Shown one piece after another: positions 39,668 through 62,836 of a DNA stretch of 64,000 nucleotides. Each line of letters starts with the position of its first letter. The first letter of the stretch is position 1. The stretch comes from a virus. A program made the translations under genes and the position numbers. The notes under the pieces were generated by a model. That model had not been told where the DNA came from, made no database searches, and was given only the letters and a program-made list of their open reading frames with translations. Location: the IMG/VR virus record IMGVR_UViG_3300044991_001301; one strand, given 5' to 3'.

Positions 39668-39722
39668 TATACCAGCACTGTTAACTATGCATAAATATAC
39701 TATAGAAAGACAATATAGACAT

Positions 39723-40007
39723 ATGGCACAGTTAAGTAGACAAGGTGATGCAAACACTACCGGTGGAACCATAATCAGGGGAGCAGGTACGGTGTTTGCT
39801 AATGGAATTCCCGTGGGACTGCATCTCAGCGCAATCACCTCGCACGCCCCGTTTGGAAGAAAACCACACCCGCCACATCAGGCAGCACAAACTACAGATG
39901 GTAGCCCCACTGTTATTTGTGAGGGTGACCCTGTCTTACGAGTAGGTTCAGGTAATACCTGTGGTCACACTATTATTGAAGGTAGCCCGGACGTATTCTG
40001 CCCATGA
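39723..40007 (+). CDS. PAAR-domain spike tip protein
   Basis: R.GD....GG.I..G..TVFANG.PV, H..., GSPTV..EG.PVLRVG....CGH.I..GS.DVF. Confidence 0.85.
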   Translation: MAQLSRQGDANTTGGTIIRGAGTVFANGIPVGLHLSAITSHAPFGRKPHPPHQAAQTTDGSPTVICEGDPVLRVGSGNTCGHTIIEGSPDVFCP

Positions 40008-44839: not shown

Positions 44840-45220
44840 ATGAGTTATTCAGCCGCAGTAATTGATCATTATGAAAATCCACGTAATGTTGGCAGTTTCA
44901 CAACAGGTGATGCAGATGTCGGCACCGGAATGGTGGGTGCCCCTGCCTGTGGTGATGTGATGAAGTTACAAATAAAAGTAGATCCAATCACAGGAGTTAT
45001 AAAAGATGCTAAATTTAAAACGTATGGGTGCGGGTCAGCAATTGCTTCATCAAGTCTCGTTACTGAATGGCTTAAAGGCAAGTCGCTTGACGAAGCAGCA
45101 ACAATTAGAAACACACACATCGCAGAAGAACTTGCCCTCCCACCAGTCAAAATCCACTGCTCAATCCTCGCCGAAGACGCCATAAAGGCTGCGATAGCAG
45201 ATTATAGATCAAAGCATTAA
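44840..45220 (+). CDS. iscU: Fe-S cluster assembly scaffold IscU
   Basis: DHYENPRNVG, GAPACGDVMKL, FKTYGCGSAIASSS and LPPVKIHCSILAEDA; three Cys ligands and the HscA-binding LPPVK motif are intact. Confidence 0.97.
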   Translation: MSYSAAVIDHYENPRNVGSFTTGDADVGTGMVGAPACGDVMKLQIKVDPITGVIKDAKFKTYGCGSAIASSSLVTEWLKGKSLDEAATIRNTHIAEELALPPVKIHCSILAEDAIKAAIADYRSKH

Positions 45221-45223
45221 GGT

Positions 45224-45694
45224 ATGAATAAAGTATACATTTTAGTAGGTGTGCCGGCCTCAGGTAAAAGCACATGGTGCCACACACAACAATTTGATTG
45301 GGGTAACACTATCATAGCAAGTACTGATACCTATGTCGAAGCCTATGCTACTAAAATTGGTAAACCATACAGTGATGTATTTGAAGGGATAATGCCCACT
45401 GCTGTCAATCATATGGTGGATACTGTGTTGTGGGCTGTAAACAGGCAGTATGACATTATTTGGGATCAAACAAGTACCACAGTGCTGTCTAGGGCAAAAA
45501 AATTGCGTATGCTACCCAGTAGATATGAAAAAATAGCGGTAGTGTTCACTACACCTGAACCAGATGAGTTGCTGATCAGATTAGCTAGTAGGCCCGAAAA
45601 AGTGATCCCGGATACTGTAATACAAACAATGATTAGTAAGTGGGAAGAACCTTCTATCGATGAAGGATTCGATAAAATTATATATGTGAGTTGA
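45224..45694 (+). CDS. P-loop kinase (AAA_33 / polynucleotide-kinase-like)
   Basis: GVPASGKST Walker A, IIWDQT, and EPSIDEGFD. Confidence 0.85.
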   Translation: MNKVYILVGVPASGKSTWCHTQQFDWGNTIIASTDTYVEAYATKIGKPYSDVFEGIMPTAVNHMVDTVLWAVNRQYDIIWDQTSTTVLSRAKKLRMLPSRYEKIAVVFTTPEPDELLIRLASRPEKVIPDTVIQTMISKWEEPSIDEGFDKIIYVS

Positions 45695-46554: not shown

Positions 46555-47103
46555 ATGCAATTACATCAGATTCACGATGCATCTAACGAGGTTGTAATGA
46601 AAATGTTACAAACCTCTCTGGCAGGAATAACGGATGCAAATCTGTTTACTAATTATCATCCGGATCACTCCCGCGATCCCGCTAATATTTTTTATATTTT
46701 GAATGATTCCACCGGCCGATACCTGAAAGGTTGCTACTATGTGTTAGAAGATAATGGTGAATACGTGTGCAGTGCCGGGTACAATGAATATGACTTAGAT
46801 CATACTGTAGCACTTGCCCTTACTAGAGCCTATATAATGCCAAAATACCGTACTAAATACTTTATGGCAGAATATATACTGCCTAAAATTATTGAAAATA
46901 CCACTCACTATCAGCACCTGTATATCACTGCTAACTCATATAATAGTGCAATATATCAATGGTTCATTAGAGCACACGAAGGTAAACGCACAGTTATGTT
47001 CAATGATTGGCCTGATATCTATAGAAAGTTCAAACCGATTGGGAAAAAGAATATATACTATACAGAGCAGTATGTGATTGAATTAGATAGGACTACTTTA
47101 TGA
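46555..47103 (+). CDS. GNAT-like acyltransferase
   Basis: YYVLEDNGEYVCSAG...LTRAYIMPKYR is a GNAT beta3-beta4 / motif A-like pattern; directly upstream of ACP. Confidence 0.55.
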   Translation: MQLHQIHDASNEVVMKMLQTSLAGITDANLFTNYHPDHSRDPANIFYILNDSTGRYLKGCYYVLEDNGEYVCSAGYNEYDLDHTVALALTRAYIMPKYRTKYFMAEYILPKIIENTTHYQHLYITANSYNSAIYQWFIRAHEGKRTVMFNDWPDIYRKFKPIGKKNIYYTEQYVIELDRTTL

Positions 47104-47318
47104 CAGACCAAGAAAAAATTAAATTTATTGAAGAGTATGTATTACAAATCTTTAAGAAAAATATTACATTGTCTCCGACGGATGTTCTATTAGATATCGG
47201 CCTAGATTCATTGGATGTTGTAGAGTTGCAGATTTATTATGAAGAAATAACCTCTACTGAAATAACCAACGAAGCTACTGTAAGCACTATCGGTGATCTG
47301 ATGGCTATTATGGCATGA
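47100..47318 (+). CDS. Acyl carrier protein
   Basis: 72 aa, acidic, with the LDIGLDSLDVVEL phosphopantetheine-attachment motif and C-terminal TIGDL. Confidence 0.9.
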   Translation: MTDQEKIKFIEEYVLQIFKKNITLSPTDVLLDIGLDSLDVVELQIYYEEITSTEITNEATVSTIGDLMAIMA

Positions 47319-48256
47319 ATTTCACATTAAACAATCACCTAAGGTACACCATTGGTGATAGACAATTTGGTATACGAGAGTATCCATATGAAAAATTTAA
47401 AGTATCTATTGGTAAAATAGATTTAGACTATTATAGAACAAGCAATTGGCTACAAGAGCAATATAGAGTTGCAGAGATAATAAGTAAAGAATACGGTAAC
47501 GATTTTGTAGTAATGTTCAGCGGTGGTACCGATAGTGAAATAGTGCTAAGGGCATTCAAACATATCGGGATAATTCCTAGAGTTGTTTTCATTAAATTTA
47601 CCAATGATTATAATGTAGATGATTTCATAATGGCTAAGCGGATTACGGATGACTTGGGATTGAGATTAGAATCTATTGACTTTGATGTAAAAGAGTTTTA
47701 TCACAGTGGGCAAGCATATGAATTTGCTGCCGATATTCAATGCAGACAAATGGCATATCTCACAGTGTATCATCATATTCGAAAAATGCAATTACCTGCA
47801 GTTATGGGAGGTGAAATGATGCTACGTAGACATACATCGCCAGTTGGCGGCAAATGGTATTATTGTTTCAGAGAAAATGAAGATGCCAGTGCAATGCGAT
47901 TTAGTTTAAAATTTAATGTGCCGTTAGTGAATGAATGGTTTAGCTACACACCGGAAATGATGGGGTATTATTTGGCTCATCCTAAAATTCAATGGTTAAT
48001 TACAGATCGATTTAACTACAAGACATCTAGTGTTAGCACTAAAAATGAAGTGCTTGCTGAGCTAATGCCTTCTATCTTAGATAAAGTAAAAACACATGGC
48101 TATGAAAAATTGATGGGTTTTAATGGTGAAACGTATAACACCTTGTATCTCAGTCACATGAAAAGATTAGAATCTAGTTTAGACGGAATCTTTATTGATG
48201 AAGTTTATACTCAACTATTTGGAGAAAAGTATGCCGGTTGTAAAATTAACCAGTGA
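47315..48256 (+). CDS. PP-loop (adenine nucleotide alpha-hydrolase / AsnB-synthetase-like) ATPase 1
   Basis: VMFSGGTDSEIV motif. Confidence 0.75.
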   Translation: MNFTLNNHLRYTIGDRQFGIREYPYEKFKVSIGKIDLDYYRTSNWLQEQYRVAEIISKEYGNDFVVMFSGGTDSEIVLRAFKHIGIIPRVVFIKFTNDYNVDDFIMAKRITDDLGLRLESIDFDVKEFYHSGQAYEFAADIQCRQMAYLTVYHHIRKMQLPAVMGGEMMLRRHTSPVGGKWYYCFRENEDASAMRFSLKFNVPLVNEWFSYTPEMMGYYLAHPKIQWLITDRFNYKTSSVSTKNEVLAELMPSILDKVKTHGYEKLMGFNGETYNTLYLSHMKRLESSLDGIFIDEVYTQLFGEKYAGCKINQ

Positions 48257-48821
48257 ACATACGATTGCAGTTAGGAACATTTTTAATCACTCAAAATATA
48301 TGGGTGTTGACAGTGCTAAAATATATCAAGTTGAAAACACGGGGTTGAATGCGTTAACTTATGACATATTTTGTGCCAACTATTTAAGCGATCTTAATAA
48401 TTATCATTCATTTGGATATGTTGAAGATGGAATAGTAAAAGCTTTAATATCATTCTATGAGAGTGTCGAGGAACCAAGTTGGTTCTATACTTTATATAGA
48501 AGCACCGGCAACAACAACTTATTAAGAGAAGTGTTAGATGAAGTTATAAAATACAATGAGTCTAATGGTAGATTGAAGTTTTACACATTGACACATAGCA
48601 AACACACTAAGTTGCTACGTCGATTCCATTGGAGTAAGTACAATAATACTCGTTATGGATATTTTGATGAGTACGTAGTACCGGCGAAAAATAAATGTTT
48701 CTATATAAATGCTTGGGAATTATTATATAAGAGATTATTATTGCCGGATGATTCGATAGTAAGATGTAATTATTTACACCAAGAATACAGACAACCGTTA
48801 ATGCTAGGCGGCAATTTATGA
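48231..48821 (+). CDS. GNAT-fold-like hypothetical protein (paralogue of 51661-52284)
   Basis: SD ggag before MPVVKLT; shares FGYVEDG/YGCYDNN, PSWFY/PIWIF and IKYNE..G.LKFY/IKYAE..EYFEFY with its paralogue. Confidence 0.5.
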   Translation: MPVVKLTSEHTIAVRNIFNHSKYMGVDSAKIYQVENTGLNALTYDIFCANYLSDLNNYHSFGYVEDGIVKALISFYESVEEPSWFYTLYRSTGNNNLLREVLDEVIKYNESNGRLKFYTLTHSKHTKLLRRFHWSKYNNTRYGYFDEYVVPAKNKCFYINAWELLYKRLLLPDDSIVRCNYLHQEYRQPLMLGGNL

Positions 48822-49615
48822 AATATCTTACTTCAGTATCTAAATCATTTTGGTTTCAATTTGTTCCAGCCTGGATTTTTGGTCTGGCTACCATTGTGAT
48901 GCTCATTTCCGGAATTATCCCGATATACTACCTCTGCGCAACATTCATTATGTGGGTGTTAGTATGTGGGTTAGGAATCGCTGTAGGGTATCATAGGGTA
49001 TTCAGTCATAAAACACATCAAATTCCAAGATGGAAAGAAAATGTTATTCTACTATTTGCGACATTTGCAGGACAAGGTGGTAGCATATTTTGGACAGCAA
49101 TGCATCGAGGATATCATCATCCACATTCGGATACAAAAAAAGATATTCATAGTCCAGTAGCATACGACAAGAAAACTGCCTTTGTGGGATGGTATTTTAA
49201 AGTTACCGAAAAAAACAGTCCCATTAATATCAAGTATGCGGTTGATTTACTACGGAAATCAAATCATCTCTTCTTTCACAAATATAGTATTACCATATTA
49301 TGGGGAGTTCCGGCTATCGTCGCATTATTTGATTGGAAATTAGCACTGAGTGCATTTTGGTTAGTAACCTTAATAGGATCAACACAAGATAACTTGGTCA
49401 ATGTATTTGGTCACGTTAGGGGTTGGTTTGGGTATAGAAATTTTGAAACAAAAGACCAATCACAAAACAATCCATTCTTGGGATATCTGGCATGGGGTCA
49501 AGGTTGGCATAATAATCATCACTATGCACCGGCAGAATATGATTTTGGCTCTGGAATAAGTGGCAAATGGTGGGAATTTGACCCGTGCAACATTTTTAGA
49601 CCATTCTTAAAATGA
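48818..49615 (+). CDS. Membrane fatty-acid desaturase 1 (Delta9/DesC-OLE1 family)
   Basis: His boxes HRVFSH, HRGYHH and WHNNHH; TM helices; WWEFDP. Confidence 0.93.
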   Translation: MKYLTSVSKSFWFQFVPAWIFGLATIVMLISGIIPIYYLCATFIMWVLVCGLGIAVGYHRVFSHKTHQIPRWKENVILLFATFAGQGGSIFWTAMHRGYHHPHSDTKKDIHSPVAYDKKTAFVGWYFKVTEKNSPINIKYAVDLLRKSNHLFFHKYSITILWGVPAIVALFDWKLALSAFWLVTLIGSTQDNLVNVFGHVRGWFGYRNFETKDQSQNNPFLGYLAWGQGWHNNHHYAPAEYDFGSGISGKWWEFDPCNIFRPFLK

Positions 49616-50169
49616 CTACTTATTATAAAAAGGTCAATTTAAATATAGGGCAAGACCTTGATTTAGACAAACTTAAAGGGCAGATGCTTTTTGAGTATGG
49701 ATACACACCGTATGGATACACATTTGTGATGTTTCAGATAGCTGATCTAACATATTTAAACAACATTTTTGCATCGGTTTTTAAGATACCGCCGAAATAT
49801 ATCCATCTAGTACAGGTAAATGCTCAAATACGACCGCACATAGATGATCACACTCTAACTAGTATGAATTATTATATTAAACCTCATGGCTTGGCAACCA
49901 ATTTTTGGCAACCAAAGGAAAATGCTAGACGCCTAAGTCAGGTAAAATATAATTACGGTAGTTCTCAATATGAAGCGACAACATTGGGGTATGTAAGAGC
50001 TGATTTAACATTAGTAGATACTTTTACTGCAATTGAAAATGAAGCGTATTTTTTAAATACAAGCGAAATTCATTCAGTCGATGGACGACTACACAACGCT
50101 AAAAGAACAATACTGCAATTTCAATGGGATATTCCAATGGATAATTTGATAGAAAAACTAGGATTTTAG
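49612..50169 (+). CDS. Putative 2OG-Fe(II)/cupin oxygenase (paralogue of 61520-62029)
   Basis: HxD (PHID), distal His (IHSV) and a following Arg (KRTILQ). Confidence 0.55.
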   Translation: MTTYYKKVNLNIGQDLDLDKLKGQMLFEYGYTPYGYTFVMFQIADLTYLNNIFASVFKIPPKYIHLVQVNAQIRPHIDDHTLTSMNYYIKPHGLATNFWQPKENARRLSQVKYNYGSSQYEATTLGYVRADLTLVDTFTAIENEAYFLNTSEIHSVDGRLHNAKRTILQFQWDIPMDNLIEKLGF

Positions 50170-50170
50170 A

Positions 50171-50989
50171 ATGAAAATTACTAAATTAACACATACTATT
50201 GGTGCAGAAATATCGGGAATCGATCTGGCTAATCCGCTAACTGTGCAGCAAAACGCAGATTTAAAAAATGCACTGCTGGAGAATCACGTGCTATTTTTCA
50301 GAGATCAACAACTGGCGCCTGAATATTTACCAACCGTAATACGGCAATTCGGTGATATTTTTTTACATACTACACAACCTAAATACAATAACAATCATCT
50401 TATTGGACATTTCGTTGCAGATGAGAATACTACATTTCTCACTGTAGAGGGTAGAGTACTACACGCAGATCGGACTTCTGTAAAACATCCACCGCGTACT
50501 TCTATGTTGTATGTGACAGAATGTCCGGACGTCGGTGGTGACACTGTATTTGTTAATACTGTTGCAGCTTACGAATCATTAAGTGACACTGAAAAGCTAA
50601 TAATGGCACCATTGTATGCCATGCATATGTCGCCTGGCGCAAGCCGCGCAAAAATGGTATGGCCCCCTACATCATCGGTTGACCAAATGGGTCGGCCGCA
50701 ATGTGCTTCCCATCCAATCATTGCTACTATACCTGAAACAGGAAAAAAGTTCATAAATGTTAATGAAGGATTTACTATAGGAATCCCAGAGCTTTCAGTA
50801 GTAGAAAGTAATCATATTTTGTCAAAGCTTTTTTATACTATACTTAATCCTCGATTCTCTTGCAGATTTAAATGGACACCTAATACGATTGCATGGTGGG
50901 ATAATTTTGGCACACAGCATCAAGCAATATGGGATTACCATCCTAGTACTAGAGTAGGATTTCGAGTTCTTTCTGCAAATCTTTATTGA
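50171..50989 (+). CDS. TauD/TfdA-family Fe(II)/2-oxoglutarate dioxygenase
   Basis: IGAEISGIDL, HVLFFRDQ, HAD, GGDTVF, HP...PETG.K, WDN..TQH.A..DY...R. Confidence 0.92.
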   Translation: MKITKLTHTIGAEISGIDLANPLTVQQNADLKNALLENHVLFFRDQQLAPEYLPTVIRQFGDIFLHTTQPKYNNNHLIGHFVADENTTFLTVEGRVLHADRTSVKHPPRTSMLYVTECPDVGGDTVFVNTVAAYESLSDTEKLIMAPLYAMHMSPGASRAKMVWPPTSSVDQMGRPQCASHPIIATIPETGKKFINVNEGFTIGIPELSVVESNHILSKLFYTILNPRFSCRFKWTPNTIAWWDNFGTQHQAIWDYHPSTRVGFRVLSANLY

Positions 50990-51645
50990 CGGAGTTCGTA
51001 AGCGTTGCTGATTTCTAATGATTTAATGCAAACCCAGGGTGGCTGTGATATAATCCATTCAATTGTCTGTGCAATGTACTCTGGTTGCATGGGAGTGTAC
51101 GAGTTGAATTTGTAATTGGTATAATTTTCATCTGGCGGAGGCCGAGAGCTGACCGCTGCGATCATGTCTGTATATATGTAGTCTGGTTCTAAGCTGGTTA
51201 TGACTAGTGGTTTTGCTCTTTTATTTGATAGGTTGTTGCTTAGATTTTTTAAAAAAACTTTGGATGCTTTGTAGGTTAACTCACTGAGGCTACTTGCATG
51301 ACGTCCGGATATGTTAGCAGACACGCTAGATACATTGATTATATGTCCCCATAGCATCTTTTTATAAAAATTTAATAATAAAAATCCTGCCGCTTCTATG
51401 TTAGTACTATACATCGCATCAAAATTGCTGCCAGCAACACCAGCATTATTAATGAATACCTTTGGTGTGTATTTTTCAACTAACATTTCTCTAAAAACAG
51501 GATCAGTTATGTCTCCGAGTTCAGTTACAAATTCTCCAGGTGTTCTTGCAACTCCCACAATAGAGTAAGAATCATTAAAATGTTGGGCGCAGGCTAGACC
51601 AACGCCGCGGCTTGATCCAGTTATTAACATAATTGGTTTAGTCAT
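50983..51645 (-). CDS. Short-chain dehydrogenase/reductase (SDR)
   Basis: ITGSSRGVG, INNAG, INVSS and catalytic YKASK. Confidence 0.92.
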   Translation of the reverse strand: MTKPIMLITGSSRGVGLACAQHFNDSYSIVGVARTPGEFVTELGDITDPVFREMLVEKYTPKVFINNAGVAGSNFDAMYSTNIEAAGFLLLNFYKKMLWGHIINVSSVSANISGRHASSLSELTYKASKVFLKNLSNNLSNKRAKPLVITSLEPDYIYTDMIAAVSSRPPPDENYTNYKFNSYTPMQPEYIAQTIEWIISQPPWVCIKSLEISNAYELRQ

Positions 51646-51660
51646 TCTTTATCTTCTCTA

Positions 51661-52284
51661 TTAATTTATTTCTCTTGCCGCCCTACTTAAACGACCCCGA
51701 CGTATAACTAACGTTTTGTTATTTTGGCTAGATAAAGTTTTAATTCCGACATCCCCGATTATTTCGCGAATGTAATCCCATTTAATGTCTGCTAAATTGG
51801 ATAAGAAATGAATATTCTCGATCTCATATCTCTCTAAGAATAAAGAAGGATTTACCGTTTCAATAATTTTTTTAACGTTCTTTTTTCTTGAAGTTGAAAT
51901 GCTGTCACGTACTACGTAATAGAATTCAAAGTACTCTTTAGTTTCTGCATACTTAATGCCCGCTGCCATCATCGAAAGACAAACTTCAGCATAATAATCG
52001 GTTAATTTTAAAGTAGACTTACTGTTCTTGACATATACATTTGAAAAAATCCAAATAGGAATAATTTTCCAAAAATGTTGGGTGGAAATGCCTACACATA
52101 TATTGTTGTCATAGCAACCATACACTCTACCAACTGTTAACATATTTTGCAACTTTTGTAACAGGCTAGAATGATCTATTGGAATTCCGTATATCGTGGT
52201 ATGATGAAATATACAACTTTTTATATCTTCAATGTCATTTATGGTTAATTCTCTGGAGTGCATACTATATACCGGGTTATTCAA
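51661..52284 (-). CDS. GNAT-fold-like hypothetical protein (paralogue of 48231-48821)
   Basis: RELT..D...I...F N-terminus plus motifs shared with 48231-48821. The start may be ATG at 52263. Confidence 0.5.
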   Translation of the reverse strand: MNNPVYSMHSRELTINDIEDIKSCIFHHTTIYGIPIDHSSLLQKLQNMLTVGRVYGCYDNNICVGISTQHFWKIIPIWIFSNVYVKNSKSTLKLTDYYAEVCLSMMAAGIKYAETKEYFEFYYVVRDSISTSRKKNVKKIIETVNPSLFLERYEIENIHFLSNLADIKWDYIREIIGDVGIKTLSSQNNKTLVIRRGRLSRAAREIN

Positions 52285-52334
52285 CTTAACTTAGTGATTT
52301 TTAGCTTTGGACCTAATTGTAGATAAATATATTT

Positions 52335-53090
52335 ATGTTCTCAGCTAGCGCTCAAACAATACCTAAAGTACAGTTAGTAACTGGAATTGCCTCGTTATTT
52401 GGAATATTCTGGGCAGACTTCACCGGTCCTAACATAGCTATACTGGTTGCTAGTTTTTATATTTATAGCATTTTAGGCATAAGCCTAACTTTTCACCGTT
52501 ATTACTCGCACCATTCATTCGAATTTAAATATGCGTTTATAAAATGGATATGCACATTGATTGCGATTTTATCAGGCAGGGGCAGTCCAATTGGATGGGT
52601 GTATATTCATAGAATTCATCACGCATATTCAGACACTCCCAAAGATCCACACAGTCCTAAGTATTTGGGATTTAAACTATTTGGATTCAAACACGTTAAA
52701 AAACATCTCAGCGGAGATATGAATTATTTTATAGTTAAAGACTTGATGAAGCCAATTCAATTGAAAATTAACAAATATTATTTTTTGATTATTTTAGTTT
52801 TTGTTCTATTGCTGGGAGTAATAAATTTAAATCTATTATATTTTGTGTGGATTCTACCGGTGTTCTTGATACAGTTAAGTCAAAAAGCTTTTAACTATTA
52901 TTCACACACTAGTGGATACAGAAACTTTGACACAAAGGATAATAGTACTAACAATATTTGGCTATGGCCATTTATCTGGGGCGACGCCTGGCATAACAAT
53001 CATCACGCTAATGCAGCCGACTTATCTACCAAAGTGCGCAAATATGAGTTTGATCCGGTGGTAACTCTGGCAAACGTAATTAGAAAATAA
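52335..53090 (+). CDS. Membrane fatty-acid desaturase 2
   Basis: His boxes HRYYSH, HRIHH and WHNNHH; DPHSP. Confidence 0.93.
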   Translation: MFSASAQTIPKVQLVTGIASLFGIFWADFTGPNIAILVASFYIYSILGISLTFHRYYSHHSFEFKYAFIKWICTLIAILSGRGSPIGWVYIHRIHHAYSDTPKDPHSPKYLGFKLFGFKHVKKHLSGDMNYFIVKDLMKPIQLKINKYYFLIILVFVLLLGVINLNLLYFVWILPVFLIQLSQKAFNYYSHTSGYRNFDTKDNSTNNIWLWPFIWGDAWHNNHHANAADLSTKVRKYEFDPVVTLANVIRK

Positions 53091-53101
53091 TAAATACATA
53101 T

Positions 53102-53884
53102 ATGCACACATTCACTACATTCACTACATCCAGTACTAAAGGTGTACAATCATTTATGATATTATCGTTGTTAGGTACTATTATTGCACTATGTATCTAC
53201 GGGGTGTCAATTAATGCGGTATTGCTCACTTTTGCAGGTTATTTTTTATATGGGTGTTTAGGAATTGTAGTTACGTATCATAGAAGATTGACACATAGCA
53301 GTTACAAAACCTATACATTACTGACTAGAGTGTTGTCTGTGATTGGATGCTTTGCTGGAACAGGAAGCCCGCTAGCTTGGGTAGCTATCCATATCAATCA
53401 TCACTTGAAGAGCGATCAGGTAGATGACCCGCATAGTCCAATACACAAAGGTCTTAGAATCTTTACCCTTGATTATGTAAATGAAGTTGATGCTGATACT
53501 AAATGGCGTATGAGAGCGTTAGTTACAGACAAGTTCCATCAATTCCTACATAGGTATTATTTTGTAATCTTAGCAGGGTATAGTCTTTTATTGTTCATGA
53601 TTGGTGGATTTTGGTTAGTAGTGTTCGCACACTTGGCACCAGCATCATTAACCGGGATAATGAGCAATGTTGTGAACTATGTTGGACACAAACCAACTTG
53701 GTGGGGAGGCTACCGTAGTTATAACTTGAATGATCACTCAGCAAACAATTGGCTATGGGCTATTCCAAGCTGGGGTGAGGCCTGGCATAACAATCATCAT
53801 AGATTTCCTAAAAATTATACCTACACACAAAAATGGTGGGAATTTGACATTTCTGGATTAATCATTAAAATAATTAAAACATGA
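53102..53884 (+). CDS. Membrane fatty-acid desaturase 3
   Basis: His boxes HRRLTH, HINHH and GEAWHNNHH; DPHSP; WWEFD. Confidence 0.93.
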   Translation: MHTFTTFTTSSTKGVQSFMILSLLGTIIALCIYGVSINAVLLTFAGYFLYGCLGIVVTYHRRLTHSSYKTYTLLTRVLSVIGCFAGTGSPLAWVAIHINHHLKSDQVDDPHSPIHKGLRIFTLDYVNEVDADTKWRMRALVTDKFHQFLHRYYFVILAGYSLLLFMIGGFWLVVFAHLAPASLTGIMSNVVNYVGHKPTWWGGYRSYNLNDHSANNWLWAIPSWGEAWHNNHHRFPKNYTYTQKWWEFDISGLIIKIIKT

Positions 53885-55353
53885 ATTGTATATTACTATA
53901 CGGCAGTAATATGATGCCGTTACAAAAACACGGTGGGGTCTTTAGAATTGCGTCAGAATTAAGAAAGCACGATTATTCGGTAATGTGCTTAGATATGGGA
54001 GCATTTGAACGAGTAAGCAAACTAGATCAAATCGCAGAAATCCTATCGAATGTAGTTACTGAAACTACACTGTGGGTAGGCTTTAGTACTTCGTTCTTTG
54101 ATAAGATATTTGGATTGAATTTTCGTTCAAAACGTGAGACAAGTCCCAAGCTAGAGGCATTTCTCGCGTTTATACGCACATTAAATCCCGATATAAAAAT
54201 AATTGCGGGCGGATCTAGATACTTTCCGTTGGAAAGACACGGGGTTACTATTTTCAAAGGTTATAGTGATAAAGAGATTGTTGACTTTACAAAATGGTGC
54301 TCCACAAAAAAATTATCTAACTTAGAATTTACTACTAGCTTAGTTCAAGGAACTGAATTTAAAGAGTTCTCTTCTAGCCAAATCCGATATGTGAAAGAAG
54401 ATTTAGTACAATCATTAGACGCCCCTCCTATCGAAATAAGTAGGGGATGTATTTTTAAATGTAAATTTTGTGCATTTCCGTTAAACGGAAAAACAAAGGG
54501 TGATTGGGTCAAGCACGGAGAAATATTGCTAGATGAGTTGAATTATAACTATGATAAGTTTGGAATAACACATTATACCTTCACAGATGACACCTACAAC
54601 GATAGCCTAGACAAGTTAAAATATTTACACGATACCGTATTTTCTAAACTTAAATTTCAGATACACTTTTCAAGTTATCTACGCCTAGACTTATTGATGA
54701 GATTTCCTGAATCAATAGAATATTTAAAAGCATCTGGTCTTCGCTCTGCTATGTTTGGAATAGAGACTATCAACCACCAATCAGCAAAAGCAATAGGAAA
54801 AGGTGTAGAACCGTATACACAACTGGAGTATATAAGGGAATTAAAACAGAATGCCTTTAAGGACATACTGATATCGTCAGGGTTTATTCTAGGGTTACCC
54901 TATGATACATTCGATACTTTACAGGAGTTTGATGAATTTCTATCTTCAGACAGAAATTATTTGGACTCTTGGCATATTAGCGCACTGGGAATAACCCCTC
55001 CCAATCGATTCAATAACACTTTTTATTCTGAGTTTGATCTAACATACGAAAAATATGGTTATGAAGTAGACGATTTCGGCTGGTTTAATAAAAATACAGG
55101 ATTATCATATGCCCATTGTTATCAAATTGCCGAAACCATAATGGAAAAATCAAAGAAGCACCCGAAATGTAAATTTGCTGGATTTTCGTATAATTATGTT
55201 CGTAGATTAGGTATACCGGAGTCTGACATAATAACTCTATCAAGAACAGAATTAGAATCTAAATATAATTTGGGACTGTTAAGTAATCAAGAGTGTGAAA
55301 CTTATGTAACTAGTATGCTAAACTTATCCCGAGATATTAAAAATTTAAGATGA
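53881..55353 (+). CDS. Radical SAM enzyme with a putative B12-binding N-terminal domain
   Basis: EISRGCIFKCKFC (CxxxCxxC), FTDDT, FGIET, GFILGLP; N-terminal VGFST / IIAGG. Confidence 0.9.
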   Translation: MNCILLYGSNMMPLQKHGGVFRIASELRKHDYSVMCLDMGAFERVSKLDQIAEILSNVVTETTLWVGFSTSFFDKIFGLNFRSKRETSPKLEAFLAFIRTLNPDIKIIAGGSRYFPLERHGVTIFKGYSDKEIVDFTKWCSTKKLSNLEFTTSLVQGTEFKEFSSSQIRYVKEDLVQSLDAPPIEISRGCIFKCKFCAFPLNGKTKGDWVKHGEILLDELNYNYDKFGITHYTFTDDTYNDSLDKLKYLHDTVFSKLKFQIHFSSYLRLDLLMRFPESIEYLKASGLRSAMFGIETINHQSAKAIGKGVEPYTQLEYIRELKQNAFKDILISSGFILGLPYDTFDTLQEFDEFLSSDRNYLDSWHISALGITPPNRFNNTFYSEFDLTYEKYGYEVDDFGWFNKNTGLSYAHCYQIAETIMEKSKKHPKCKFAGFSYNYVRRLGIPESDIITLSRTELESKYNLGLLSNQECETYVTSMLNLSRDIKNLR

Positions 55354-56276
55354 TACATCTATGCGAACACAATTGGCATCAATGGCAATATGGCAACGAT
55401 CTACCATATGGCCGGCAGACCGCTAACGAACCATTTAAAACTATCTATCATAAAACAGATAAACTGATTCGGTCATATAAAGAAGAGTTATTGATCGCTG
55501 CCCAAAGCACAATGGATCATTACCCTGGATTGCAGCCTAGTATTTTTTTTAGTGGCGGAGCTGATAGTGAACTCGTATTACGTTCTTATTTGGGAATAGG
55601 TGCTAATCCAAAAGTCTTTATCATACGTTATGAAAATGATTATAACATATATGATGTTAGTTATGCAGTAACTATTTGTTCGTTGTTAAATACACCGTAT
55701 ACTATTATTGATTTTAATTTAACAAAATTTTATGAAAATGACGCCGAATCTATCTCTGAGATGGCACAAATAGACAGACCTAGAGCCCTGCCATATTGTA
55801 AATTTTTAGAGATCGATGATGGTTTTCCGGTCTTGGGAGAGGGAGATCCTTATTGGGTACGTCTAACTAATGACTACTCTCAACCCGGTCTCTGGAAATT
55901 CAGAGACGTAGAAACGTTCATTGGATGGGAAAAATATGCTATACATCTAGATAAGCCGGCGGTAGTTCAATTTTTAAAATGGTCACCGGGTCTAGTATTG
56001 GCCCATACAAACCTTACTTGGTTTAAAAAACTAATTAATGATGAATACTATGGTAAGTTAGGCACAAACTCTACGAAGCTTATTGGCTATCGGGAAGTAT
56101 ACCCGGACATGATTGATAGACAGAAAAAAACAGGTTTTGAAAAAATAGATAGTTTGATAAATGAATTTGCGTTATTCCTTCAAAAAAAGTACTCGGGATC
56201 TCATTATGTGCATCTAGTAGATAGAACTGTGGACGAGCTTTGGATGGAAATAGCCGGATTTGAGTATGAGGCCTAG
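55350..56276 (+). CDS. PP-loop ATPase 2 (close paralogue of 47315-48256)
   Basis: FFSGGADSELVLR, NDYN..D, IDF...FY, NSTK and KTGFEK match ATPase 1. Confidence 0.75.
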   Translation: MIHLCEHNWHQWQYGNDLPYGRQTANEPFKTIYHKTDKLIRSYKEELLIAAQSTMDHYPGLQPSIFFSGGADSELVLRSYLGIGANPKVFIIRYENDYNIYDVSYAVTICSLLNTPYTIIDFNLTKFYENDAESISEMAQIDRPRALPYCKFLEIDDGFPVLGEGDPYWVRLTNDYSQPGLWKFRDVETFIGWEKYAIHLDKPAVVQFLKWSPGLVLAHTNLTWFKKLINDEYYGKLGTNSTKLIGYREVYPDMIDRQKKTGFEKIDSLINEFALFLQKKYSGSHYVHLVDRTVDELWMEIAGFEYEA

Positions 56277-56282
56277 TGAAGA

Positions 56283-57452
56283 ATGAGATTAAATGGACAT
56301 TATGTTGTTAATGGAGTAGTTATCGCCAATAAACTACGAGCTATTCTTGAGGCTAGTAGAACCAAAACTAGCTTACAGTGGGTTTTTTTTGATGAAATCT
56401 TTGCAGAACCTAGTAATATTAACTTTCACACCGTATCATTAAAAGAACTGTATAGAATTAGAGCACAGCAACTGCGAGATACCAATGATTATTTAATTCT
56501 TAATTATAGTGGCGGAAGTGACAGCCACAACATATTAATGACGTTCTTAGAGAACCGTATACCGCTAGATCATCTGTACATTCAATGGCCTGAGAGACTA
56601 ATGGATAAGGGAATTTATACTCCCAATGCCATAGATAGAACAAATGCCAATTTCCATTCAGAATGGGATTTAGTAATAAAAAAAGATTTAGAATGGATCG
56701 GTAATAAGAATCCTGAAATTAAGATTGAAATAGGTGATTGGACAAACACACTTAATGAGCAATTTTACAATGATGACATCTTTACCAATGATGTTAGTAA
56801 TCTTCCTAGCATTGCTAGGTCGCAGAAACAGACCACCTTTAGTCCGACTGAGGGCAAGTTAGCATTACACGGTAAAAAAGTAGCAAGCATATTTGGCGTA
56901 GACAAACCTAGTATAGTTAAAAAAGGTAATCAATGGTTCTTTTACTTTATTGATACCGCTTGCATGGCACAACCTAACCCTGATAATCCACACGGTACTG
57001 AGTATTTTTATTGGAGCCCCGACTTCCCGGAGATTGCCCACGCACAAGCTCGGGCTATGAAAAGATATTTTGAAATTAATACCAGTAAAACATACTTAGT
57101 ACAAGCCATGTCGGAGAGAATTCAGGCTCTACCGAGTTTACCAATAACTACTAAAAGTTATGAAAAACACTATCTTGAATATTCTCAGCTTGCAGAAATA
57201 GCAAAATTAGTATGTTATCCTTATTGGGATTTCAACAGATTCCAAGCAGATAAACCCTTCGCAGTACTGGATGGATTTAAAATGGGAATGAGGGCGTGGG
57301 ATAATATACTATCCAAAGTTCCCGGGTTTGATCGAGTACAGCAAGCTTGGGAATATCATTGGAAAAGCTATCTAGATCAAATTGATATGCGATTTATGAG
57401 AAACAATGATACACTAAATGTTTGCAAAACAGTATGGCACCCTATTAATTAA
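56283..57452 (+). CDS. PP-loop ATPase 3 (distinct subtype)
   Basis: RAQQLRD..DYLILNYSGGSDSHNIL, FGVDKP, EYFYWSPD. Confidence 0.75.
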   Translation: MRLNGHYVVNGVVIANKLRAILEASRTKTSLQWVFFDEIFAEPSNINFHTVSLKELYRIRAQQLRDTNDYLILNYSGGSDSHNILMTFLENRIPLDHLYIQWPERLMDKGIYTPNAIDRTNANFHSEWDLVIKKDLEWIGNKNPEIKIEIGDWTNTLNEQFYNDDIFTNDVSNLPSIARSQKQTTFSPTEGKLALHGKKVASIFGVDKPSIVKKGNQWFFYFIDTACMAQPNPDNPHGTEYFYWSPDFPEIAHAQARAMKRYFEINTSKTYLVQAMSERIQALPSLPITTKSYEKHYLEYSQLAEIAKLVCYPYWDFNRFQADKPFAVLDGFKMGMRAWDNILSKVPGFDRVQQAWEYHWKSYLDQIDMRFMRNNDTLNVCKTVWHPIN

Positions 57453-57480
57453 ATGAACGTATATACGGACTAAATAACAC

Positions 57481-57783
57481 GTGTACATATTTTTTAAGGA
57501 AGAAACAAGACCATCAGTAACGATTCCTTTTTATGCTGAAAGGAATCCAGCGTCATCTGCCTATAGGAAATACTTCAATGACACCTATATTACTACTGGT
57601 ATCTTCATACTATCAGTGGTAACTTATTCAGAAGATCGGTTAACGTTAACTAATAAGATGACATGGATTTCGCGTGCAGGATTCTTACAGTTTTCGACAG
57701 ACTCATTTTGTTATGACACCCAGATAATTCCAAATAGAATATATAATCGTGAAAATAATATTATATCACGCATATTATTATAG
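57481..57783 (+). CDS. Small hypothetical protein (paralogue of 58434-58748)
   Basis: GTG start just after TAAATA; shares RPS..I.F, TY..T, S.D.LT.T...W and R..YN..N with its paralogue. Confidence 0.6.
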   Translation: MYIFFKEETRPSVTIPFYAERNPASSAYRKYFNDTYITTGIFILSVVTYSEDRLTLTNKMTWISRAGFLQFSTDSFCYDTQIIPNRIYNRENNIISRILL

Positions 57784-57803
57784 TAGAAGAAAGCAAATAA
57801 ATA

Positions 57804-58394
57804 ATGTCAATGAATTCTCCAATTTGGAAACAGTTTGATTCCTCTGTTTTTTTTAAAGACTTACAAATACCATCTGACTGGGAAACATTAGAGGATTTTG
57901 TAAATTGGTATATGGAGTCTAAAATTCCCATGATGATTCCTTGGAACGCTGAAGTGGTGCGTAGTGATGATGCCGTTGCTATTTGTTTGTTCAGACACGG
58001 GGCATACCAAGTTGAATTATACTTAGTATATCCTCAAATGTATATACGTAACCATTCGCATCCTAGAATGGAAGTCATAACTATGGATTTAGGTGGAGGC
58101 AGCTTATCACCACGCCAACCAAACAATACTTCAAGGACATGGGGAGATACCTCTACGAAAATACTATCAGGTGAATATCACGGTGGAGAAACCGGTAGTT
58201 TATTAGGAAATGGATTTTGTATTCTTTCATTTGAAAAATGGCATAACGTTGATGAAATGACTTCAGCTGCCATTCAATGGAAAGGGGAGTTACAGGGTCC
58301 TATTCAAACAAGTCTGATTAAAACACACAAACCAGATGCAGTAATTATTCCGGATAAGTATGCTGATGTGTCTGATGCATTTATAAATCTCTAA
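57804..58394 (+). CDS. Cupin-like hypothetical protein
   Basis: HSHP..E and a later YHG resemble cupin metal ligands. Confidence 0.5.
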   Translation: MSMNSPIWKQFDSSVFFKDLQIPSDWETLEDFVNWYMESKIPMMIPWNAEVVRSDDAVAICLFRHGAYQVELYLVYPQMYIRNHSHPRMEVITMDLGGGSLSPRQPNNTSRTWGDTSTKILSGEYHGGETGSLLGNGFCILSFEKWHNVDEMTSAAIQWKGELQGPIQTSLIKTHKPDAVIIPDKYADVSDAFINL

Positions 58395-58433
58395 TTTTAA
58401 AGATAAATATATTATAACTTTATAGGAAAAAAT

Positions 58434-58748
58434 ATGTATCAGATTATAAGAACCGCAGCAAGACCGTCGCTTGATATAGAATTTTTTAAAGTAAGTGATA
58501 TTGATGACGTTTCAAATCATTTTATGACATATTGGGTTGAAACCTACAGACACACTGATAAATTATTGTTATTGGTACAAGAACATTCAGATGACCAGTT
58601 GACCATGACAACTACATTTATTTGGGATAGTGAAGAGACTTGTAATGACGTGTATGCAGATCCGGTAGTTAGTAACTATTGGGCTATTCGCGATGCATAT
58701 AATGTTGCAAACGGGGTGACGTTCTCAGAAGTAAGAGCCGCCCTGTAA
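58434..58748 (+). CDS. Small hypothetical protein (paralogue of 57481-57783)
   Basis: SD agga; shared motifs as listed for 57481-57783. Confidence 0.6.
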   Translation: MYQIIRTAARPSLDIEFFKVSDIDDVSNHFMTYWVETYRHTDKLLLLVQEHSDDQLTMTTTFIWDSEETCNDVYADPVVSNYWAIRDAYNVANGVTFSEVRAAL

Positions 58749-58784
58749 CACATCTTGGAGCTCCTCATAATGAGGATCATAATA

Positions 58785-59924
58785 ATGGAACTTTTTAATC
58801 CCCTGTCAAGTGATTGGCTCTCATATAAATTTGAGATGTATAAAAAAATGCAGGTAATGGACACTGCATATTATTGTGAAAAATATAATGGATATGTATT
58901 TACCCGATACGATGACGTAAAATACGCATTAAAAAATCACGATATTTTTTCCTCCGGTCGCGGAAATCTTATTCAAGAATCCCCACATCGGTTCAATAGA
59001 ACACTTGGGGCGTCTGATGATCCAATGCATAGTATCCTCAAAAACATAGTTAAAGAAGCATATAGCAAAGAGAACATTCAACGAATAGTCAATTGTTTTG
59101 TAGAAAGGTCAACAGAGTTGTTGGCTGTTAATAATTCAGTTTTTAACTTGTCAAGTTTAGTAGAAGAGGCTAGTGCTTGGGTCAGTACAGAAATTCTGAA
59201 TTTACCGCATTGCAAAAAAGAAGTTCATAGATTAGTACTTGGCATATTACGGCATGCTAGCCAATCTGTGGCACACAATGTAGATCAGTCATACTATACT
59301 GAATTTACTAAGTTAATAGTTAGTTTGCTTAAAAATAAAGTACCGTCAGTTGGTCCTGGAATATACCATGAATTCATAACACATAGTAAAGACGACACAT
59401 TGATTTCATTATTTACCGGTCCAACTATTTCTGGAGTTGGATCATTGTCTGGCGCTCTGGGATTTTTAGCAGTAGACCTATATAGGGAGGATCTATTTGA
59501 GACATTAAATCAAGATAGATCATTGATTCCCGGGCTGATTAACGAATCATTGAGGTACAATTCTTCATCAGGTAGAAAAGTTAGAACGGTAACAAGAGAT
59601 ATTAGTATGCATAATGTATCCTTGAAATTGGGCGATAAGGTTATTTTGTCTCTAGAGGCAGCAAACAGAGATCCTAATATGTTTGCTGACCCAGATAAAT
59701 TCTTACCAGAACGCGAAAATGCAGGAAGCCTTGCGTTTGGATATGGAATGCACGCCTGTATTGCATCCGTTATTAGTAAGAAGGTACTTCAAGTATGGGT
59801 CGAGTTGTTACTAGGTACATTAGGTAAATATAAAATAACGCCAGACCCCTCAGGATTCGTCTTTCAGATTACCTCTTCCGGTAATCAAGACTCTGTAACT
59901 AATCTGATGGTGGAAACTATTTAG
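58785..59924 (+). CDS. Cytochrome P450
   Basis: TRYDDVK..L....FSS, D.P.H, ESLR (ExxR), AANRDP..F.DPD.F..ER and the heme motif FGYGMHACIA. Confidence 0.92.
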   Translation: MELFNPLSSDWLSYKFEMYKKMQVMDTAYYCEKYNGYVFTRYDDVKYALKNHDIFSSGRGNLIQESPHRFNRTLGASDDPMHSILKNIVKEAYSKENIQRIVNCFVERSTELLAVNNSVFNLSSLVEEASAWVSTEILNLPHCKKEVHRLVLGILRHASQSVAHNVDQSYYTEFTKLIVSLLKNKVPSVGPGIYHEFITHSKDDTLISLFTGPTISGVGSLSGALGFLAVDLYREDLFETLNQDRSLIPGLINESLRYNSSSGRKVRTVTRDISMHNVSLKLGDKVILSLEAANRDPNMFADPDKFLPERENAGSLAFGYGMHACIASVISKKVLQVWVELLLGTLGKYKITPDPSGFVFQITSSGNQDSVTNLMVETI

Positions 59925-59927
59925 GGG

Positions 59928-60593
59928 ATGAAAATATTAATATTTTATACTCCTAGGAGTAAAAGCACAATGATACACGATTTGTGCTGTAAAAAATTCA
60001 ATTTACGCCCGTTTGGTGACACCATAACAAAAAACAGAATCAAAAATAAGAATTTTAATGAATATCCGCCGTTGATAGCAGTCATCAATGAAAGCGATAG
60101 TATGTGCGTTAAGCTTAATGGTAATGATTTTTTTGACTCCAATAGTAATGCTATAACTGAGTTGTATAAAACAATAAACTATCAATCGTTTGACACCATA
60201 ATTTTCTTAACTAGAATCAATTATATAGATGCCATACTAAGTTATGCGTATATGGATCCCGACGACAGTACCACTTGGCATAGAAAAAAGAATCAGAAGG
60301 TTGTCGCTGAACCGTATACTATATCGCATAGTAAGATACATCATTTATTAAATGGATATCTATCGTATAACAAAATTAAACAGTATATACTTTCTGCTGT
60401 TACTACTTCTACCCAAGTATATGATTATGAGTACGACAATGTGGCTAATTTAATACTTAAATTAGAATTGGGAAGTGACATTGATCTAGTGCCAATGGAC
60501 ATTGATTATAAAAGTGTAGTAACAAATTATGATGAGGTTATTACCGTTGTTAGCGAATTTGTAGCCCATCATAACTTATTTGACATCAATTAA
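59928..60593 (+). CDS. Sulfotransferase-like P-loop protein
   Basis: TPRSKST resembles the PAPS 5'-PSB loop; IIFLTR...DAILS resembles the 3'-PB motif; YE near the C-terminus. Confidence 0.55.
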   Translation: MKILIFYTPRSKSTMIHDLCCKKFNLRPFGDTITKNRIKNKNFNEYPPLIAVINESDSMCVKLNGNDFFDSNSNAITELYKTINYQSFDTIIFLTRINYIDAILSYAYMDPDDSTTWHRKKNQKVVAEPYTISHSKIHHLLNGYLSYNKIKQYILSAVTTSTQVYDYEYDNVANLILKLELGSDIDLVPMDIDYKSVVTNYDEVITVVSEFVAHHNLFDIN

Positions 60594-61519: not shown

Positions 61520-62029
61520 ATGCTTATGTTTCAAAAAATAAATATATCTTTTTTAGAATTAGATTTTGTTAAATTAAAAGGAGTAAATGCGTTTGATCTT
61601 CCGAGGTTCAAAGAATTTACTATTTTAGACACTGACTATTTGTTTGCCATATTAAATAAACAAATTCAGTTTGATGTAACACCTCGAGTAAACATAACAG
61701 AAATTACATACCCTGGTGCCGGCCCTCATACTGATACTTGGCAAACTGCTCTTAATTTTTATTTTGATGCCAATGAAGATGAAACATTTTTTTGGAAAGA
61801 ACTTAATGCAGCACCGGATTCAAAAAAAGGATTAGTATCCTACAATCAAAAAAATTTAGAAAAGACAGGTTCCTTTAAAGCAAATAAAGGAGATTGCTAT
61901 TTATTAGATGTTGGTAACTCAATTCATTCTGTAAAAATGTATACGCCAAACACAACTCGAAAAATATTAAGATTATTTTGGCATGAATTATCATTTGAAC
62001 AAGTATTACAAAGTTTGAAATTCGTGTAA
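61520..62029 (+). CDS. Putative 2OG-Fe(II)/cupin oxygenase inside the tRNA array (paralogue of 49612-50169)
   Basis: PHTD...ALNFY...TFFW...F.A..GDCYLLD...IHSV...RKILR. Start moved out of tRNA-Phe. Confidence 0.6.
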   Translation: MLMFQKINISFLELDFVKLKGVNAFDLPRFKEFTILDTDYLFAILNKQIQFDVTPRVNITEITYPGAGPHTDTWQTALNFYFDANEDETFFWKELNAAPDSKKGLVSYNQKNLEKTGSFKANKGDCYLLDVGNSIHSVKMYTPNTTRKILRLFWHELSFEQVLQSLKFV

Positions 62030-62275: not shown

Positions 62276-62836
62276 ATGGCTGTCCTAGCACTAGATATCT
62301 CAGGAACCCCCAGACAATGGATAACAAATGATACCGCAATTTCATACCACGCCACCAAATCAGTAGGTTGGAGTATGGGAGAGATTGTGGCTAGATATCG
62401 GGGTGGACTTCAAAATGATGGTACATCAAGTTACCTAGAAACTTCGTGTATCATTGCTATCAAGGGTCACGGGTTCAACCCCCATAAACACGCCCAAGTA
62501 GCATTAAGTAATAAAACATTGTTTGGTAGGGATAGAAATCTTTGTGCATATTGTGGCAAGTATTTTGCCAACTTCCATGCTTTAAGCAGAGACCATATTA
62601 TTCCTAAAAGTAAGGGTGGAGACAATACTTGGATGAATGTAGTTACCTCTTGCCGCGATTGTAACAGTGAAAAAGGACATAAAAGTTTGAAGGAAGCAAG
62701 AATGGAATTGCTTTACCTACCATATGTACCTTCACATTTTGAAAATATGATTTTACAAAATCGTAATATTCTAGCCGATCAAATGGAATATTTGATTGCC
62801 GGCGTACCAAAACACAGTAGAATTTTGCTTTCCTAG
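62276..62836 (+). CDS. HNH endonuclease (McrA/HNH_5-like) in the tRNA array
   Basis: LFGRDRNLCAYCG, DHIIPKSKGG.NTW.NVVTSC..CN..KG; SD aaggag. Confidence 0.9.
   Translation: MAVLALDISGTPRQWITNDTAISYHATKSVGWSMGEIVARYRGGLQNDGTSSYLETSCIIAIKGHGFNPHKHAQVALSNKTLFGRDRNLCAYCGKYFANFHALSRDHIIPKSKGGDNTWMNVVTSCRDCNSEKGHKSLKEARMELLYLPYVPSHFENMILQNRNILADQMEYLIAGVPKHSRILLS

Follow-up and report, generated by a model that had tools for sequence, protein, structure and literature searches.

What does a phage do with a run of genes encoding an acyl carrier protein (ACP), membrane desaturases, ATP-dependent PP-loop enzymes and acyltransferase-like proteins? Such a run lies at 46555-60593 of IMG/VR virus record IMGVR_UViG_3300044991_001301, in the 64,000-nucleotide stretch that we analyzed (hereafter the window), and a sequence-only reading had cast all 14 kb of it as one ACP-centered biosynthetic cluster. 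We compared this island with its relatives in other viruses. Our preferred interpretation, which we hold at slightly less than even confidence, is that the island is a carrier-dependent phage pathway that builds and tailors an amide-linked unsaturated fatty-acyl compound. The product would most simply be a membrane lipid, either a lipo-amino acid or aminolipid-like, made in the infected cell. Our confidence in any single step of the mechanism is much lower than in this general model.

From IMG/VR we retrieved 18 loci with PP-loop A, the first of three PP-loop proteins in the island, and 40 loci with GNAT1, the first gene of the island, and analyzed them by gene-family clustering and profile searches. 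GNAT1, the PP-loop enzyme, a second GNAT-fold protein (GNAT2) and a desaturase occurred together in 31 of the 40 loci. Among the remaining nine, three were cut by contig ends, and six were divergent, with GNAT1 directly beside the desaturase. A desaturase was detected in 37 loci, and in most of them the core copy directly followed GNAT2 or GNAT1. The core order is GNAT1, an optional ACP, the PP-loop enzyme, GNAT2 and the desaturase, and both this order and the overlapping reading frames were kept down to ~40% protein identity. Despite rearrangements in three relatives (L011, L014 and L018), the four core genes were still adjacent, and a complete relative (L030; IMGVR_UViG_3300027749_002876, 524,565 bp, CheckV 100% complete) carries the core in a minimal four-gene form. 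The site of the island is constant as well, after genes for ribonucleotide reductase (RNR), glutaredoxin, a PAAR-motif protein, a large protein and a cell-wall hydrolase. Because 40 independent viral contigs carry the same genes in these surroundings, we regard the island as genuine phage DNA and rejected a misassembled host fragment as its source. The synteny that the sequence-only reading had proposed to look for was found: the core is co-conserved, and its homologues are not scattered. The idea of a single 14-kb cluster held for four to five genes that are conserved as a unit; the remainder, 14 of the 19 genes, differs between phages and belongs to a variable pool.

GNAT1 (46555-47103, + strand) is a divergent protein with a predicted GNAT acyltransferase fold. 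It had no match in Pfam, PHROG or NCBIfam; its AlphaFold2 (AF2) model (predicted local distance difference test score, pLDDT, 83) aligned to GNATs with a Foldseek probability of 1.0 and a VIA Z score of 12.6 over ~145-150 residues. GNAT2 (48231-48821, + strand), always directly after PP-loop A and with a start codon picked from the orthologue alignment, was placed in the same way (AF2 model pLDDT 77, Foldseek probability 1.0 to GNATs, VIA Z 13.5 over a similar ~145-150 residues). The sequence-only reading had listed three GNAT-like paralogues. The fold supports two of them, paralogy between GNAT1 and GNAT2 was not detectable, and the third, at 51661-52284, found no support. We found no longer forms of GNAT1 (at least 448 aa); one locus carries a natural GNAT1-ACP fusion (L015:9237-10004).

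The ACP itself (47100-47318, + strand, 72 aa), a frequent but optional core gene, scored 20.3 bits on PP-binding (PF00550), just below the cut-off of 20.8, and 6e-6 on TIGR00517, far under that model's cut-off. Its best NCBIfam matches were nevertheless ACP equivalogs, orthologues in three related records (G001, G017 and G022) exceeded the PP-binding cut-off with 21-37 bits, and the motif DSL...EL...YE, including the DSL serine, was invariant in nine orthologues, all of which bears out the original call. The gene was found in only 17 of the 40 loci, and a search of the entire complete 524-kb relative returned no ACP, AcpS, ketosynthase (KS) or ANL enzyme. We reasoned from these two observations that the ACP is optional and that host AcpP can presumably stand in for it; over half of the relatives lack the gene, and the ACP is therefore not the center of the system.

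Which functions, then, does the phage supply, and which does it borrow? In agreement with the sequence-only reading, family scans found no KS, acyl-AMP (ANL) ligase, phosphopantetheinyl transferase (PPTase) or thioesterase in the window, and tblastn with the ANL enzymes of relatives was equally negative for the ligase, which makes the borrowing of host functions plausible. Some relatives have recruited such genes. Of 27 related viral records, four carry AcpS as an island gene; in the one examined (L068), it overlaps the end of a desaturase gene and scores 78.5 bits on TIGR00516, above the cut-off of 59.8. An ANL enzyme lies inside the island in three of the 27, all of them divergent relatives: one is FadD-like (272 bits on the long-chain-fatty-acid ligase model) and sits ~3 kb from the GNAT1-desaturase pair, and the other two are shorter. 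Acyl-carrier chemistry, as proposed from the sequence, is thus supported by the invariant DSL motif, the GNAT1-ACP fusion and the AcpS and FadD-like genes in islands of relatives. None of the 27 records contained a KS (PF00109), and neither they, above the cut-off, nor the window contained an alpha-oxoamine synthase of the serine palmitoyltransferase (Spt) type (PF00155). The phage therefore does not make the chain itself, which leaves phage-run fatty-acid or polyketide synthesis from scratch unsupported, and a de novo sphingolipid or ceramide pathway is likewise unlikely.

The third conserved component is PP-loop A (47315-48256, + strand), a 313-aa asparagine-synthetase-like, ATP-dependent enzyme with an SGGTDS motif, a PP-loop that begins at residue 69, and no glutaminase domain. 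By family scoring the assignment is weak (PF00733, 15.5 bits versus a cut-off of 21; weak matches to Asn_synthase, QueC and LarE). Its ESM-Atlas model, however, aligned to Asn_synthase domains with TM-scores of 0.66-0.70 across 255-269 residues (span 1-286). A role as an ATP-dependent amide ligase, which the sequence-only reading had suggested for the PP-loop proteins, fits this predicted fold. A thiolation role is argued against by the lack of any invariant cysteine. A profile search with PP-loop A returned 1901 representative clusters at E <1e-3.

The last core gene encodes DES1 (48818-49615, + strand), a membrane Delta9/DesA-like fatty-acid desaturase (FA_desaturase 7e-11, DesA_fam 1.5e-14). 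The window encodes two further desaturases, DES2 (52335-53090, + strand, FA_desaturase 4e-17) and DES3 (53102-53884, + strand, 4e-14), and the call of three membrane desaturases stands: the three score 42.8, 63.2 and 53.4 bits on FA_desaturase (PF00487; cut-off 29.7), and each displays the HRxxxH, HxxHH and HNNHH boxes. They are not DesA proper, scoring 54-75 bits on the DesA equivalog NF049918, whose cut-off is 400, and being ~120 aa shorter than that model. In the desaturase tree, a single clade (support 98/95) unites the core copies; the extra copies, including the fast-evolving DES2 and DES3, fall outside it on long branches. One desaturase is the usual number in relatives, and additional copies show no conservation.

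Around this core lies the pool of genes that is shuffled between phages. Across the relatives it holds A4-type and A5-type 2-oxoglutarate (2OG) oxygenases, TauD and cupin proteins; radical S-adenosylmethionine (SAM) enzymes of the B12-dependent (B12-rSAM), rSAM-SPASM and other kinds; and PP-loop B and C copies, an ATP-grasp-like protein, TctC-like proteins, a methyltransferase and small proteins. In the window, the first of these is a 2OG-Fe(II) oxygenase of family A4 (49612-50169, + strand), confirmed by the invariant HxD...H...R pattern (H76, D78, H154 and R165 across 19 sequences) and by profile matches to BesD-type lysine halogenases (5e-5) and to proline hydroxylase; the family is related to three other accessory families (f5, f21 and f26). 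It is followed by a TauD/TfdA-family 2OG dioxygenase (50171-50989, + strand; Pfam TauD 4e-45), which scores 188 bits on the taurine dioxygenase model, under its cut-off of 313, and by a short-chain dehydrogenase/reductase (SDR; 50983-51645, - strand; adh_short 6e-13, with FabG-like NCBIfam matches). Among the first 18 loci, the TauD gene was shared with one only (L004), where it is again paired with the SDR gene. A B12-type radical SAM enzyme (53881-55353, + strand; Radical_SAM 2e-14, with a visible CxxxCxxC motif) has the B12-rSAM families PhpK, HpnJ and BzaD as its top NCBIfam matches and is a recurrent accessory, with homologues of ~30% identity in 10 of 18 loci. The cytochrome P450 (58755-59924, + strand; p450 4e-15, heme-Cys motif visible) best matches a cyclodipeptide-synthase-associated P450 family (5e-30). 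The earlier calls of the TauD, SDR, radical SAM and P450 proteins were all upheld.

Two more PP-loop proteins belong to the variable part, and all three carry the SGGxDS motif. PP-loop B (55350-56276, + strand, SGGADS) is a paralogue of PP-loop A with 29% identity (E 2e-20). PP-loop C (56283-57452, + strand, SGGSDS), a distant third paralogue and recurrent accessory found in seven of the first 19 loci, was joined to the A/B family by hhalign at 94% probability over 159 columns, or 77% when a single sequence was used. The trio named in the sequence-only reading is thereby confirmed, by paralogy for A and B and by profile comparison for C.

Two small proteins of one family (sm), of 100 aa (57481-57783, + strand) and 104 aa (58434-58748, + strand), are paralogues of each other (7e-8), and the second had no match in Pfam or PDB. 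Language-model features of the 104-aa protein came closest to viral clusters (0.95) and then to the DUF6974 and YCII-like families (0.91-0.92), which is a weak lead. The sm family and a related one (f18; hhalign probability 97.5% to the 100-aa proteins of the window) are present in one to three copies in many loci, and the f18 copies have conserved bodies and vary in their last 8-12 residues. Three f18 copies per locus were seen in L011/L014 (13576-14169; ~18054-18395).

Three ORFs (open reading frames) of the island had less to offer. The 196-aa product at 57804-58394 (+ strand) may be the cupin that the sequence-only reading called, judging by a visible HxHxxxE(x6)G motif; a database match is absent. 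The 207-aa ORF at 51661-52284 (- strand) matched nothing in Pfam, PHROGs, NCBIfam or PDB, nor the GNAT1 and GNAT2 profiles. For the 221-aa ORF at 59928-60593 (+ strand), no supporting match was found in the family libraries or PDB; the proposed sulfotransferase, and with it sulfation of the product, are left unsupported. A phmmer search of these three ORFs against PDB returned nothing, and they and the P450 had no counterpart in the first 18 related loci. PDB searches with profiles of GNAT1, GNAT2, the small proteins, the A5 oxygenases and PP-loop C gave nothing usable. In all, ten island ORFs lacked a Pfam match, six of which were then placed by fold, motif or family profile.

From the observed folds, families, gene order, co-conservation, fusions, and AcpS and FadD-like genes of relatives, we infer the following chemical steps, their order, the acceptor and the product. 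A fatty acyl chain would be carried on the phage ACP, or on host AcpP where the phage ACP is lacking. Host AcpS would activate the carrier, a task that a phage AcpS would take over in some relatives, and host fatty-acid synthesis or, again in some relatives, the FadD-like ligase would load it. GNAT1 would transfer the acyl group to an amine acceptor; the PP-loop enzyme would adenylate a carboxylate of the GNAT1 product and join a second amine to it; and GNAT2 would acylate or cap that second amine. The membrane desaturase would introduce a double bond into the chain. The variable enzymes would then decorate head group and chain, differently in each phage; in the window, the candidate decorators are the two extra desaturases, two further PP-loop enzymes, the amino-acid-type 2OG oxygenases, TauD, the SDR, the B12 radical SAM enzyme and the P450. 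Tailoring of the head group is suggested by the accessory oxygenases, which resemble enzymes with amino-acid or small-peptide substrates (BesD, proline hydroxylase, TauD and the cyclodipeptide-associated P450).

Several observations weigh against this lipid pathway. GNAT1 and GNAT2 resemble generic acetyltransferases alone; searched against Pfam and NCBIfam families that included Acetyltransf_1, OlsB, N-acyl-amino-acid synthase and LuxI, they gave no match even at E up to 10, and they show no likeness to OlsB, N-acyl-amino-acid synthases or LuxI-type enzymes. No OlsA-type O-acyltransferase is present among the island ORFs as judged with the family libraries, the ACP is missing from most relatives, and the window yielded no candidate to supply electrons to the desaturases or the P450. 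The behavior of the PP-loop protein in other phages matters too. Elsewhere, members of its family are joined in one protein with a canonical Acetyltransf_1 GNAT domain, either part coming first, or have a GNAT on each side; in uncultured phages we observed a wider module of a GNAT, a tandem-fused PP-loop and a GNAT, or PP-loop-GNAT fusions (L024:5256-8246, L023:7015-9425 and L021:8001-10410). Together with the adjacency of the two genes in the core and a second PP-loop and GNAT2 pair at L015:19377-20790, these arrangements show that PP-loop and GNAT are a working unit in their own right, a point in favor of amide-forming chemistry. The uncultured-phage loci have no ACP or desaturase nearby, and the substrate of the pair therefore need not be a lipid. 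The sole cultured-phage relative that we found, gp44 of Ralstonia jumbo phage RsoM2USA (MG752970.1; L026:11968-12903; hidden Markov model E 3e-11), is distant, and its neighborhood is annotated as hypothetical throughout.

These loci bring up the strongest of the competing explanations, namely that the target of the PP-loop/GNAT module is a macromolecule, be it tRNA, some other nucleic acid or a protein, with the ACP and desaturase either supplying an acyl group for attachment to it or serving a separate lipid function that happens to adjoin. This corresponds to the conjugate proposed in the sequence-only reading, among whose candidate acceptors (virion fibers, tRNA, DNA and envelope lipids) the sequence favors none. 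The PP-loop superfamily includes the base-modifying enzymes TilS, QueC and MnmA. Weak profile matches connect the phage protein to such enzymes; its phage family is huge, at the 1901 clusters mentioned above; the loci that lack ACP and desaturase have genes for aminoacyl-tRNA synthetase, RtcB, PTH2, Pnkp-like kinase/phosphatase and Asp/Arg-hydroxylase as neighbors; and a polynucleotide-kinase-like gene and a tRNA array flank the island of the window. Closeness to tRNA genes, however, is not kept in the relatives examined. Asparagine synthetase, rather than TilS or MnmA, is what the predicted fold resembles most; we detected no domain that binds nucleic acids; and in this clade the PP-loop/GNAT pair has stayed locked to the desaturase through several rearrangements, with GNAT1 fused to the ACP in one locus. 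On balance we consider macromolecule modification unlikely. Three further alternatives are each less likely than this one. The island could have no common product at all, being a hypervariable site that gathers unrelated auxiliary metabolic genes such as desaturases, oxygenases and acetyltransferases. Lone lipid desaturases are indeed known as phage auxiliary genes (PMC5776448), 14 of the 19 genes vary between phages, and the island GC content is lower in every relative checked. Such a gene dump would nonetheless not be expected to show a four- to five-gene core that holds its order with overlapping frames down to ~40% identity, GNAT1-ACP and PP-loop-GNAT fusions, or AcpS and FadD-like genes recruited to the island, and we find it quite improbable.

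[quoted passage not shown] The island might accordingly encode a ribosomal-peptide-like or lipopeptide pathway, with the 100-aa proteins as precursors or scaffolds that radical SAM, P450, ATP-grasp and asparagine-synthetase-like enzymes would modify and a GNAT would then lipidate from acyl-ACP. The rSAM-SPASM, B12-rSAM and ATP-grasp-like genes of relatives would suit such a pathway, as would one to three small-protein copies with variable last 8-12 residues and a P450 nearest to cyclodipeptide- and RiPP-associated families. Against precursors, conservation of the small proteins extends from end to end, and they recall small alpha/beta-barrel families (DUF6974, YCII-like) by language-model likeness; they are also absent from many loci, including the minimal four-gene form, and no leader peptidase or exporter was seen. 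We rate a lipidated peptide as very unlikely. Less probable still, in our judgment, is a polyyne or alkyne-type fatty-acid antibiotic, in which the desaturases would act on an ACP-bound chain and the P450 would hydroxylate it, as in JamABC and the cay/pgn systems. The window does combine an ACP with three desaturases, and the islands of three relatives contain FadD-like ligases. Yet a ligase, a thioesterase and a rubredoxin are missing from the window by family scans, which cannot fully exclude them among the ORFs without a family; most relatives have one desaturase, the extra ones being variable and long-branched; and the conserved GNATs and PP-loop enzyme would have no role in a polyyne cassette.

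How, then, does a phage pathway for an amide-linked acyl compound compare with systems already described? Beta-lactam synthetase, OxyD-type amidotransferases and lasso cyclases are amide synthetases of the asparagine synthetase B type that lack a functional glutaminase domain. The phage enzyme shares their SGGxDS PP-loop and C-domain fold, and it too would be expected to adenylate a carboxylate, which an amine then attacks. It differs in being a ~310-aa protein without the N-terminal domain, in scoring under the Pfam cut-off, and in belonging to a phage-only family that pairs or fuses with GNATs. In the synthesis of ornithine lipids, AcpP donates the acyl chain, which OlsB attaches to ornithine at its amino group; hydroxylation, methylation or an ATP-dependent addition of taurine follows, and the gene for this last enzyme has yet to be found (PMC12971839). 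Transfer from an ACP to an amine, decoration by hydroxylases and an ATP-dependent amide step on the head-group carboxylate are features that the island, as we read it, would have in common with this system (OlsB/OlsA, OlsC, D and E; PMC12971839). Unlike it, the island has a desaturase in its core, is phage-encoded with its own ACP, lacks an OlsA-type enzyme, and has GNATs that share the generic GNAT fold without matching the OlsB family; the role of its PP-loop enzyme is a predicted one. The JamA/B/C and polyyne cay/pgn systems (PMC9828172, PMC8406139 and bioRxiv 10.1101/291195) likewise use a dedicated small ACP with membrane desaturases, and the desaturase trio and P450 of the window and the fatty-acid ligase of some relatives add to the likeness. 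In contrast, family scans of the island ORFs found neither an acyl-AMP ligase nor a thioesterase, rubredoxin or ferritin partner, relatives mostly have one desaturase, and the conserved partners in the island, two GNATs and an asparagine-synthetase-like enzyme, are absent from those systems. The cyanophage lipid desaturases (PMC5776448) are also short, phage-encoded membrane desaturases of the Delta9 type, whereas DES1 is part of a conserved multi-gene cassette and is accompanied by diverged extra copies. The island is a member of neither the OlsBA nor the Jam/polyyne family. Its enzyme superfamilies are all known, and four of the five core proteins are covered by no curated family; the combination and the viral setting are new.

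Searches of other collections agree with this. Megablast of the island and tblastn of PP-loop A found no match in 50,697 deposited phage records. The desaturase had three distant matches only among these records, two of which look like mislabeled bacterial DNA; in one that we discarded (L020; CAKLQH020000002.1, 'Acinetobacter phage MD-2021a'), the gene lies among trpB/C, btuB, baeSR and acyl-CoA dehydrogenases, and the record is probably mislabeled bacterial DNA. No relative of the PP-loop protein was found in 185,579 bacterial and archaeal genomes, which is weak evidence, the search having used a single peptide pattern from the alignment. The whole module was thus in no deposited phage, and we found no description of this gene combination in phages in the literature.

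The immediate setting of the island is that of a large myovirus, of which the window is a portion. The portal and major head proteins are T4-type, and the nearest capsids (63-67% identity) belong to the jumbo phages Vibrio 2.275.O, PA5oct, Phosso and Erwinia pEa_SNUABM; the label T4-like therefore holds for the head and portal genes, with jumbo phages as the closest kin. The block is as tightly packed as it had appeared, with 19 ORFs, 17 of them on the + strand, and many 4-nt stop/start overlaps or gaps of <40 nt. Its GC content (0.355 versus 0.412 upstream) confirms the AT-richness that had been noted by eye, and a drop of 3-7 points relative to the left flank was seen in all nine relatives checked. 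The conserved left flank includes genes for a PAAR-motif protein (39687-40007), a cell-wall hydrolase (43342-43884; Hydrolase_2 1.6e-26), the IscU Fe-S scaffold (44840-45220, + strand; NifU_N 2.9e-51) and a polynucleotide-kinase/ATPase-like protein (45224-45694). IscU, 77-89% identical in eight related loci, may support the radical SAM enzymes of the island. Eight tRNA genes lie downstream, so the described position between iscU and the tRNA array is correct. Amid them, outside the island, are a second A4-type 2OG oxygenase gene (61520-62029, + strand), a paralogue of 49612-50169 (1e-6) and of the same family by clustering, and, just after it, an HNH endonuclease gene (62276-62836, + strand; HNH_5 1.5e-18). 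The T4 late promoter TATAAATA was not enriched (five in the window versus nine expected), and neither the late-type motifs nor the late expression proposed from them are supported; Sigma-70-like sites and terminators in the window were at chance level. The TctC family (tripartite tricarboxylate receptor) is expanded in Betaproteobacteria, and the TctC-like genes in two related islands (L014:16490-17359 and L007:18702-19598) may be a clue to the group of hosts.

An auxiliary gene of a phage usually encodes one enzyme taken over from the host, and a conserved multi-enzyme cassette with its own carrier would differ from this, the more so as some relatives add AcpS and a fatty-acid ligase of their own and the tailoring set changes rapidly. 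If our preferred interpretation is right, virulent giant phages would maintain a secondary or lipid metabolism of their own. A bolder version, which we regard as doubtful, is that large freshwater-type phages run a lipid pathway that is unknown in cells, in which the two GNATs, the asparagine-synthetase-like ligase and the desaturase would make a virus-specific amide-linked unsaturated lipid and each lineage would re-decorate it with its own oxygenases and radical SAM enzymes. Such a lipid could serve to remodel the host membrane, to block superinfection or as a toxin, and the PP-loop enzyme would then be a candidate for the orphan ATP-dependent amide ligases of aminolipid head groups. Algal giant viruses have a sphingolipid pathway, and the phage island would be its counterpart in a bacterial virus. 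The PP-loop family comprises ~1900 representative clusters, nearly all of them uncharacterized. The identity of the product would assign a function to this large block of viral dark matter, might reveal a new class of lipid or natural product, and would give a handle on how phages manipulate the membranes of their hosts.

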